NCBI GenBank assembly: GCA_023136205.1
Contig: JAGLRQ010000118.1
Span: 1 to 6,731 of the forward strand
Direction: 5' to 3'
DNA: 6,731 bases
DNA from: Candidatus Auribacterota bacterium
Lineage (GTDB): Bacteria; Auribacterota; UBA6266
Shown here: in pieces, positions 1,946 through 3,421 of the stretch
How the letters are laid out: each line of letters opens with the position of its first letter
Numbering within the stretch: the first letter of the stretch is position 1
The notes under the pieces: model-generated
The model's database searches: none
Told to the model about the DNA's origin: nothing
The model's input: only the letters and a program-made list of their open reading frames with translations
Made by a program: the position numbers and the translations under genes

Positions 1946-3421
1946 ATGAACATAAGATGTCCAATATGTGATAATGACGCTACGATTTATAATGAAAGAG
2001 ATTATAATAATATTTTGGGGATATCGTGTAATTCATGTGGAAAATATGAAATCACAATGAATTTGAAGGACTCATTTAAAGCAGGAAATTTTGATAATAA
2101 CAAGTATATTATTGCTGGTTGGTTGTACGAGACTAAGAACAAGAGAACACACCCATTGCTAAGCAGCCAAAAAATGGCCAATAAGCGCTCTCTAACTATA
2201 GATGAAATAGTTCATAAAAAAGCTAATGTTCCTCATAGTGTAGAAGATAAGCTCAATAGAATGTTATTAAAAATAAAAGAAGATTCAAAAGAAATTGGCG
2301 AAGTAGTATCGTATCTATTATTTTGGGATTATCCTTCTATTTATGCAATGAGTCAAAATGAATTCAAACAGATTATTAGTTTATTGGAAGAAAGAAAACT
2401 TATTCGCATTACAAAAGACAGTAATCAGGCAATAGAGTTAAAGTTGTGTAATGAAGGATATAAAAAGATAGAAATGTTAAAGGATAATAAGGAACAGCAT
2501 GTGAATTTGGATTTAACCAAAGAAGATAAAAAAACCAATATATTCATAAGTTATGATTCAAAAGATAATGATTTATTGAAAGTTTTAGTGTCCGAAATAA
2601 AAAAAAGACCTATATTAAATCCAATTGTTGTTGCAACCAAACCCTCCCCGAGAAAACCATTAGCTAAGAAAGTGGAAGATGGCATTACTGAGTCTAAATA
2701 CTTTATTCCAATACTTACTAATATTTCATATAAAACTCAATGGGTTAATCAAGAAATTGGATATGCTGAAGCACTTGAAACACTTGGAAATATTAAAATC
2801 GTTCCGATTATTGAAAGTTCTGTAAGAGATAAATTAAAAGGATTCATTCATAAAAATGAAGACCTTCCCTACAGGTTTGCACGTTCGGACAATAAGAGAA
2901 AAGAAAAAATTATATTTAGAAAAAAATGTCAAACATTGTTGGATTACATCTTAGATGAAATAACAAAATTAGAAAATGTTAAAAAGCAAGAGAGAATCCC
3001 AGGGGTAAAGGAAAATTTATACGAAGTAGGTGTAAGAGGTTTTAAGGAAAAAGATATAATTGTAAATAGAAAAATAACAAAAGAATTGATGTTTAATCTT
3101 AGAGTGAAGTTATCTACGATCTATCAACATTTTATAGCATATTATTCATTTAAAACTAACACACAAGAAACAATATGGATCGGTTATAAAAACAATCAAA
3201 ATCAAAGGGGCGATCACGTAGGAAAAGATGAATATACAAAAGTTATAAAAAATAACCAAAAAATATCATATTCAATTGATGATAATGTTGTCAAAACGAT
3301 AAAAAAACGATTTCCTAATTTAACTGGCACCCCAGTGATTATCGAAAAAGTACGTTTTAGAGGTGATAGTAAAAATAATGATGTAATCAACTTTTATTAT
3401 GCTTTTTCAGAAAAGGTATAA
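1946..3421 (+). CDS. Multidomain TIR-like protein with four parts: CxxC...CxxC zinc ribbon, a possible winged-helix region, a TIR-like core and an orphan C-terminal domain
   Basis: 491-aa uninterrupted ORF in a region of about 27% GC. Residues 5-31 read CPIC..(19)..CNSC. Residues ~197-335 read TNIFISYDSKDNDLLKVLVSEI...ITESKYFIPILTNISYKTQWVNQEIGYAEAL...IKIVPII. This matches the bacterial TIR pattern: beta-A FISY(S/D)xxD, then hhhhS/TxxYxxSxWxxxEhxxA, then a hhPhh strand. The domain call is by motif only. Confidence 0.7.
   Translation: MNIRCPICDNDATIYNERDYNNILGISCNSCGKYEITMNLKDSFKAGNFDNNKYIIAGWLYETKNKRTHPLLSSQKMANKRSLTIDEIVHKKANVPHSVEDKLNRMLLKIKEDSKEIGEVVSYLLFWDYPSIYAMSQNEFKQIISLLEERKLIRITKDSNQAIELKLCNEGYKKIEMLKDNKEQHVNLDLTKEDKKTNIFISYDSKDNDLLKVLVSEIKKRPILNPIVVATKPSPRKPLAKKVEDGITESKYFIPILTNISYKTQWVNQEIGYAEALETLGNIKIVPIIESSVRDKLKGFIHKNEDLPYRFARSDNKRKEKIIFRKKCQTLLDYILDEITKLENVKKQERIPGVKENLYEVGVRGFKEKDIIVNRKITKELMFNLRVKLSTIYQHFIAYYSFKTNTQETIWIGYKNNQNQRGDHVGKDEYTKVIKNNQKISYSIDDNVVKTIKKRFPNLTGTPVIIEKVRFRGDSKNNDVINFYYAFSEKV

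Follow-up and report, generated by a model that had tools for sequence, protein, structure and literature searches.

A candidate single-chain TIR defence protein from Candidatus Auribacterota with two folded accessory modules outside curated families

The stretch of DNA analysed here (the window) comprises 6731 nucleotides of Candidatus Auribacterota bacterium (GenBank assembly GCA_023136205.1, contig JAGLRQ010000118.1) and encodes a 491-residue TIR protein that, to judge from its sequence, is most likely a single-chain, three-module, defence-type protein made by domain shuffling. An N-terminal module of about 195 residues (the N-module), in which a zinc ribbon, a linker subdomain and a winged helix are predicted, precedes the TIR domain, and a beta-sandwich domain (the C-domain) follows it. 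TIR domains with appended modules are already known; what is new is that two such modules are without any curated family, and no description of this architecture was found in the literature. The attachment of sensors to TIR proteins is familiar from bacterial immunity, but there is so far little explanation of how TIR proteins that stand alone notice an infection. The open reading frame (ORF) lies where an earlier note on this DNA had placed it, a Shine-Dalgarno-like stretch (AAGAAGAG) is found 5-6 nt 5' of its ATG, and 5 contigs on record encode a protein identical to its product. Its parts are as follows.

1946 to 3421, forward strand: ORF of the TIR protein, 491 amino acids (N-module, TIR, C-domain), from the ORF listing
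1946 to 2056, forward strand: zinc ribbon with four cysteines (C5, C8, C28, C31), residues 1-37, from alignment and AF2 model
2057 to 2233, forward strand: linker subdomain, helical with small beta elements, residues 38-96, from AF2 model and alignment
2234 to 2524, forward strand: MarR/PadR-like winged helix, residues 97-193, its long last helix running into the TIR, from AF2 model, Foldseek and VIA-align
2540 to 2980, forward strand: TIR domain with an invariant QWVNQE motif, residues 199-345, from Pfam, PADLOC and alignment
3020 to 3418, forward strand: beta-sandwich C-domain, residues 359-491, from AF2, Foldseek, VIA-align and profile search

We propose, with about an even chance of being right, that this gene product acts alone as an anti-phage sensor and effector in which an NAD-cleaving TIR would be held inactive until the N-module, the C-domain or both bind an infection cue. 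The TIR is predicted to be an NAD-cleaving enzyme that needs self-association and would be inactive until the trigger appears; the cue, bound by the N-module and/or the C-domain, would be less likely to be duplex DNA contacted through the recognition helix than a small ligand or a protein; its binding would promote TIR-TIR assembly, as in TIR-STING, TIR-SAVED and Cat1; and assembly would lead to NAD+ depletion and abortive infection. The proposal is supported by the separability of the modules, their folds, their portability, the glutamate E270, the lack of conserved partners and the location in an accessory island. The flanking regions had been read in the earlier note as appended sensor domains, and they do prove to be folded, conserved and portable, and to be carried by effector or signal enzymes in variable or defence contexts. 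Sensing itself, on the other hand, is plausible only, and it is so because the modules attach to effector-type or signal-generating enzymes in variable or defence-type contexts, as is typical of sensor or regulatory domains added to an enzyme.

When run separately in phmmer, the three pieces behaved as three independent homology units. All three parts are combined only in the window protein and in the metagenomic protein P0002 (493 residues, 83% identical), which was the sole full-length relative when 5.8 billion protein clusters were searched with a word index. In that search, proteins of about 287 residues (P0003-P0007) aligned from residue 196 to the C-terminus and thus have the TIR and the same C-domain. 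The N-module (queried as residues 1-195) was found in 130 clusters at E<=1e-3 in an exhaustive phmmer search of 1.84 billion representatives; in all of them residues ~4-180 of the query were matched at the protein's own N-terminus, and most of these proteins are 300-330 residues long. The TIR of the window protein falls with the shorter TIR proteins (E 8.6e-42 to P0003) as against the TIR of the N-module carrier P0045 (E 6e-6). The window protein is of interest as a natural domain swap, in which this N-module precedes a TIR of another subfamily that brings its own C-domain, and it helps to define the module boundaries.

An AF2 model of the N-module built on a 69-sequence alignment is a single compact unit (pLDDT 94.1, pTM 0.87). 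Residues 1-37 form a predicted zinc ribbon with two CxxC knuckles kept across relatives (C5-P-I-C8, then 19 residues, then C28-N-S-C31). The ribbon that the earlier note had recognised at residues 5-31 (CPIC-x19-CNSC) was thereby borne out: C5, C8, C28 and C31 are invariant in 69 of the 69 aligned relatives and sit on beta-hairpins in the model (strands 11-18, 23-28 and 32-37). Two libraries gave sub-threshold matches for the ribbon, namely a weak Lar-type match in Pfam (residues 5-37) and the CxxC zinc-binding model ECs_2282 in NCBIfam (residues 1-38). The linker has residues conserved in the family (K/R53, S57, G58, R61, which is Tyr in the window protein, and P96). Beyond it, the AF2 model places helices at 99-113, 125-132, 137-149 and 169-193, a strand at 121-124 and a wing of two strands at 153-158 and 162-167. 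The call of a winged-helix fold for this modelled region is solid because Foldseek and VIA-align agree and the order helix-helix-helix-wing is canonical; membership in the MarR/PadR family is not established. VIA-align ranked MarR-family chains first, which aligned within residues 95-195 of the model (Z 9.8, root-mean-square deviation 2.3-2.6 A over 83-87 residues), a score modestly above the background, which lies below a Z of about 8. The top ~50 Foldseek matches to the N-module were MarR/PadR regulators (E 0.02-0.1). It should be noted that the winged helix fills the matches in these fold searches, and residues 1-95 were barely probed by them. No helix-turn-helix (HTH) family was found in Pfam at E<=1 for the 491-residue protein, MarR and PadR models included, and a profile search of the PDB with the N-module reached a MarR chain only at E 0.24. 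The earlier note had confined the winged helix to residues 135-178; the fold stands, but that span is too narrow: it takes in the recognition helix and the wing and then only the beginning of the last helix, and the fold starts near residue 97. Nor are the ribbon and the winged helix separate additions, as had been supposed: they are one homology unit of ~180-190 residues that always recurs as a block. Strongly conserved across the 69 relatives are G32, P96, K102, G118, D128-Y-P-x-x-Y-A, E139-F140 and G171-W/Y172, and the conserved polar residues K102, D128, Y129, Y133 and E139 suggest a pocket or a protein-contact patch.

These residues bear directly on the kind of cue that the N-module might bind. 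The earlier note had suggested nucleic-acid or phage-protein sensing, and in its fuller form the nucleic-acid alternative holds that the N-module binds nucleic acids in a sequence- or structure-specific manner and either detects phage DNA or RNA via the zinc ribbon and winged helix or autorepresses the cassette. Contacts with nucleic acids are frequent among zinc ribbons, the nearest structures to the winged helix are those of the DNA-binding MarR/PadR proteins, the winged helix also aligns with Z-alpha domains, and residues 38-96 are basic (isoelectric point, pI, 9.9). However, 90% of the family have an acidic residue at position 139 of the recognition helix, Lys or Arg in the 69-sequence alignment has a frequency of <=0.28 throughout helix 137-149 and of ~0.1-0.2 at the wing tip, relatives differ in the length of the wing, the winged helix of the window protein (residues 97-180) has a pI of 5.9, and neither MarR nor any other HTH model in Pfam is matched. 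Canonical DNA binding by the winged helix is doubtful because neither the recognition helix nor the wing is basic, and we regard the nucleic-acid binder as improbable overall. With MarR/PadR regulators the window protein has in common the fold of residues ~97-193, yet it has no sequence-family match to them and its helix and wing are acidic or neutral, and, unlike in the stand-alone regulators, its winged helix packs against a zinc ribbon to form one module with it and is joined to an enzyme.

Nothing in Pfam, NCBIfam, PADLOC or PHROG models the N-module, the PHROG matches being sub-threshold only, and the output domains behind it, which process NAD or nucleotides, vary. Pfam Nuc_deoxyrib_tr (PF05014) matches the C-terminal ~130 residues of 39 of the 69 aligned relatives, and a PADLOC model of a CBASS-type TIR effector matches the same part of 48 of the 69. 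TIR_2 domains are fused to the N-module in P0045, P0054 and P0068; other partners are a CAP12-type TIR, a Schlafen domain (SLFN_AlbA_2, in P0072) and, in P0116, a GGDEF domain, with a weaker match to a Cas10-palm model overlapping the same stretch. The fusion junction always lies at ~185-205. A zinc ribbon and winged helix before a TIR are thus not unusual in themselves, contrary to what the earlier note had supposed, since besides the three TIR_2 fusions most of the ~130 clusters have TIR-like or nucleoside 2-deoxyribosyltransferase-like (NDT-like) domains. The proteins of ~310 residues with this arrangement (P0021-P0146) share the N-module with the window protein at 22-40% identity, in the same N-terminal place and with the same junction, but their output domain is PF05014-like and is not followed by a C-domain, and the TIR of the window protein is of another subfamily. 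A further comparison is with the PADLOC candidate PDC-S66, of which positions 118-240 (of 282) align to the TIR part of the window protein (E 1.3e-6, the match being stated as residues 164-288) and which the relative P0054, with N-module and TIR_2, matches strongly (E 4.9e-63). The first ~120 positions of PDC-S66 aligned to the N-module in no member tested, and a full-length match was not encountered.

Within the phylum of the window, 3 of 78 other genomes contain full-length or near-full-length members of the protein family, and the 5 genomes of the window's own taxonomic family contain none. In a second phylum (that of locus L016; probably Bacteroidota), ~20 of 401 sampled genomes gave matches across the N-module. 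The 6-kb flanks of 15 N-module loci from two phyla have no gene in common, except that three related genomes show local synteny; no match to the N-module was found on plasmids by tblastn, and among the ORFs of 128 loci with relatives of the TIR there were 0 matches to the N-module as a separate gene. From these sequence comparisons, the N-module appears to behave as the input part of units that consist of one gene and have exchangeable enzymatic outputs, because its fusion partners vary and its loci have no common neighbours. We consider the N-module family the lead of greater interest: placed before several output enzymes in ~130 clusters, it may be a new input domain and is a candidate amenable to study, while the ~310-residue proteins with NDT-like outputs are a candidate new single-gene defence family. 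A bolder reading, offered tentatively, is that the N-module is an undescribed, widespread immune input domain that itself recognises a cue of infection and turns on interchangeable nucleotide-processing outputs (TIR, NDT-like, GGDEF and Schlafen), that the C-domain is a second, independent ligand sensor, and that the chimera in the window integrates two inputs on one TIR. If true, this would amount to a new family of single-gene defence systems in ~4-5% of the sampled genomes of the second phylum (probably Bacteroidota).

At one N-module locus (L066, 5184-8327, genome G015), a gene for an N-module with an NDT-like domain is followed by a 212-residue ORF and a 470-residue ORF; the start of the latter resembles Schlafen/AlbA_2-type proteins by eye, and a transposase-like fragment lies just upstream.

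The frequency of the NDT-like domain, present in most N-module relatives, also allows a non-immune role, in which the protein would be a regulated nucleotide- or NAD-metabolising or toxin-like enzyme of a mobile element, such as an addiction module; one N-module relative adjoins genes that, judged by eye, are RHS/YD-repeat-like. The distribution is patchy and strain-specific, however, the neighbours are defence genes, and the TIR subfamily matches ThsB, retron-TIR and CBASS-effector models, all of which make such a role highly improbable.

The TIR domain itself is the only part of the 491-residue protein with a Pfam match above threshold (TIR_2, PF13676, residues 199-295, 43.5 bits against a cut-off of 28). 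E270 occupies the position of the catalytic glutamate in the alphaC region; it does not vary among 13 relatives, and the conserved glutamate of Cat1 and that of the Brucella TIR protein BtpA align with it. The best PADLOC matches are ThsB-type TIR models (ThsB1, E 4e-11, for which there is no curated cut-off), and Pfam ThsB_TIR scores 12.1 bits, below its cut-off of 21.2. An NCBIfam Retron_TIR match over residues 87-295 raised the possibility that residues 87-198 are homologous to the retron-TIR linker; this was rejected, the match being driven by the TIR and the N-module alone giving none at E<=0.001. Among known systems, TIR-STING, TIR-SAVED and Cat1 (TIR-CARF) likewise have a TIR with a conserved glutamate followed by a compact C-terminal domain in a unit of ~260-320 residues, and Cat1 is the best sequence match for the TIR among solved structures (E 3e-5). 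They differ in that the C-domain described here is a beta-sandwich and not a STING, SAVED or CARF fold, that the loci examined showed no cyclase partner, and that the window protein adds the ~195-residue N-module.

For the C-domain, AF2 gave a model of ten strands and one helix after a low-confidence linker (pLDDT 87.5, pTM 0.82). The earlier note had described this end of the protein as beta-rich and without a recognisable motif, and both descriptions hold: no Pfam, NCBIfam, PADLOC or PHROG family covers the C-domain (the PHROG matches were sub-threshold only), and a profile search of the PDB returned TIR matches only. In Foldseek the closest chains were CFAP20 of the axonemal doublet (E 5e-6, TM-score ~0.5), then the beta-sandwich of D-glucuronyl C5-epimerase and the jelly rolls of GH11 and GH12; VIA-align placed the epimerase sandwich first (Z 11.1, root-mean-square deviation 3.1 over 125 residues), with CFAP20 at Z 9.9 and 9.4 and all else below 8. 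At 9-14% identity, the CFAP20 and epimerase matches to the modelled domain indicate fold and not function. CFAP20 (DUF667) and the epimerase domain share with the C-domain a beta-sandwich or jelly-roll topology, but no family model (none in Pfam) joins them and their biology is unrelated.

The residues kept in the C-domain are Q395, Y400, T405, E409, W412, G414, E430, T432, Y443, R456 and the RFRGD motif at 471-475 (numbered as in the window protein, that is, A5 position + 345); they do not vary among the seven closest relatives (A3/A4) and hardly vary in a wider set of eight (A5). The domain is basic (pI 9.7), and the pattern of conservation would be compatible with a ligand site. A region-restricted word search with the C-domain returned only the window protein itself and P0002, and a profile search restricted to longer proteins found it in 12 clusters at 90% identity, eleven of them with the domain behind the same TIR subfamily. 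The clusters are itemised as ten TIR proteins of 278-310 residues, the two of 491 and 493 residues and P0157, for a stated total of 12. On this sampling of sequences the C-domain appears rare and almost always tied to this TIR subfamily and is not a strict orphan; the earlier note's term fits in that no curated family exists, but not in that the domain defines a small family of TIR proteins with this extension.

The only C-domain protein without a TIR is P0157 (321 residues, metagenomic). Its first ~195 residues are helical and match no Pfam family, and an R-x4-H stretch in them (RNKIAH) is reminiscent of HEPN motifs; if this likeness is true, it would provide a second effector type for the C-domain. 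Two other assignments for the C-domain were considered and dropped. A GAF-like fold, suggested by ESM-Atlas neighbours (TM-score <=0.5, model pLDDT 0.62), disagrees with the all-beta sandwich of the AF2 model, and no GAF chain is among the Foldseek and VIA-align matches listed. Viral relatives were sought in BFVD, which gave generic jelly-roll capsid and tail matches only (TM-score 0.3-0.47).

With the folds of both modules in view, it can be asked whether they sense anything. MarR-type folds usually dimerise via flanking helices, and TIR enzymes need self-association. The accessory modules could therefore be a scaffold that sets the geometry of TIR assembly through dimerisation or oligomerisation of the MarR-like helices and the beta-sandwich, the trigger being sensed elsewhere, for example by the TIR itself or via changes in the NAD or nucleotide pool. 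Helix 169-193 is long and leads directly into the TIR, and CFAP20-type beta-sandwiches are lattice-building or binding modules, both of which would suit such a role. We nevertheless judge it rather unlikely: the conserved polar patch (D128, Y129, Y133, E139 and K102) looks like a binding site and not a coiled-coil interface, the N-module is coupled also to the non-TIR outputs GGDEF and Schlafen, and the C-domain conserves Trp, Glu, Tyr and Arg, as in a ligand site.

The TIR gene lies in a strain-specific insertion, as indicated by a same-genus genome that is without positions ~1895-5470 and by the repeats that flank the site.

1895 to 5470, no strand assigned: low-GC insertion of 3.6 kb, from an empty-site comparison with the same-genus genome
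3939 to 4823, forward strand: DUF6602 / PD-(D/E)xK (NucC-like) protein, from Pfam and PADLOC, not a conserved partner of the TIR family

In the same-genus genome (L153), the genes for a polyferredoxin and a corrinoid protein and folD are directly adjacent, and the ribosome-binding site of folD comes straight after the corrinoid-protein gene; the genes are likewise adjacent in a same-family genome. The insertion has a GC content of about 0.27-0.33 (0.26-0.30 in the low-GC stretch around the TIR ORF), against ~0.45 in the flanks, and is bracketed by an 8-bp direct repeat (TATAAATA) at 1887-1894 and 5471-5478. Its cargo consists of the TIR gene, a 114-residue ORF, the DUF6602 nuclease-like gene and a 102-residue zinc-ribbon ORF; no integrase or transposase ORF was seen in it. 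The DUF6602 protein (63.7 bits in Pfam) matches the PADLOC models for NucC / CBASS small-endonuclease effectors and for a 'Cas-associated PD_DExK' protein, and it resembles Damona, a DUF6602 protein of Vibrio integrons that has been reported to be an anti-phage cassette of one gene (bioRxiv 10.1101/2024.07.02.601686).

This neighbour raises the possibility of Thoeris-like signalling by two genes, in which the TIR protein would be a ThsB-type sensor and signal generator, its accessory domains detecting the phage and its product, derived from ADP-ribose, activating the downstream DUF6602 / NucC-like nuclease as effector. The ThsB models in PADLOC are the best matches of the TIR, the nuclease gene follows 0.5 kb downstream in the same orientation and belongs to the same insertion, and the nuclease matches effector models as described above. 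Additionally, homologues with TIR and C-domain each precede a different gene (an Abi_C gene, a gene for a transmembrane protein, or an unannotated 470-residue gene and then DUF1780), and such variable downstream genes resemble the effector swapping of modular Thoeris-like TIR-effector pairs, of which 29 Thoeris types, DNase effectors included, have been reported in a study that deliberately set stand-alone TIRs aside (Yirmiya et al., bioRxiv 10.64898/2025.12.03.692087). Against this, no DUF6602 homologue stands beside any of ~125 loci of the TIR subfamily, and the ORFs of 128 such loci include 0 homologues of the DUF6602 gene or of the 114-residue ORF; no neighbour is conserved among the 7-9 loci with TIR and C-domain; Damona is reported to act on its own; SLOG, Macro, SAVED and CARF signal-binding domains were not detected in the nuclease by Pfam or PADLOC; and Pfam ThsB_TIR stays below its cut-off. 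Thoeris ThsB is likewise small, TIR-centred and found in defence-island contexts, but among the loci compared, most of whose contigs are short and several of which have varying genes downstream, no ThsA-type or other conserved effector was recognised beside the TIR, and classical ThsB has neither a zinc-ribbon and winged-helix module nor a beta-sandwich. A two-gene system is accordingly considered unlikely, and the evidence favours an insertion of stacked independent defence genes because Damona is reported as a single-gene defence cassette.

The wider family with TIR and C-domain (P0003-7, L068-L077) is 35-62% identical over full length, and nine metagenomic loci, of which seven to eight are distinct, have full-length or near-full-length members. 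Among the genes next to them are those for a Type ISP restriction-modification enzyme, which abuts the start codon of the TIR, for an HNH protein and an Abi_C protein, for two ATPase-like proteins (a KAP NTPase and an SMC-like ATPase) and for a DUF1780 endonuclease; no neighbour was common to independent loci among the 7-9 loci compared. Several points weigh against the proposal of a single-protein sensor and effector. Most of the related contigs are short (1-4 kb), and partner genes could have been missed; the defence-island context is annotated for three or four loci only; several loci with TIR and C-domain have a different same-strand gene within 46-256 nt downstream; and the AF2 model of the C-domain was built on 7 sequences. 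Among GTDB genomes, the only match spanning TIR and C-domain (33% identity) is in a Sedimentisphaerales metagenome-assembled genome (L003, 7989-8843), where the ORF ends after 205 residues and the tblastn match goes on, so that a frameshift or a pseudogene is possible.

Two further small genes of the window may be mentioned. The 102-residue ORF of the insertion (5116-5424) begins like a lipoprotein and ends in a CxxC...CxxC zinc ribbon (a sub-threshold Elf1-type match), and its GC content (~0.40-0.42) is higher than that of the rest of the insertion. At 749-1248, a 119-residue gene of the 23S-rRNA-IVS-protein / bAvd-like type (Pfam PF05635, 141 bits) is missing with its flanks from the same-genus genome, in which ~11 bp separate the polyferredoxin and corrinoid-protein genes; by this comparison, the bAvd-like gene and its flanks appear to be a second small strain-specific cassette.

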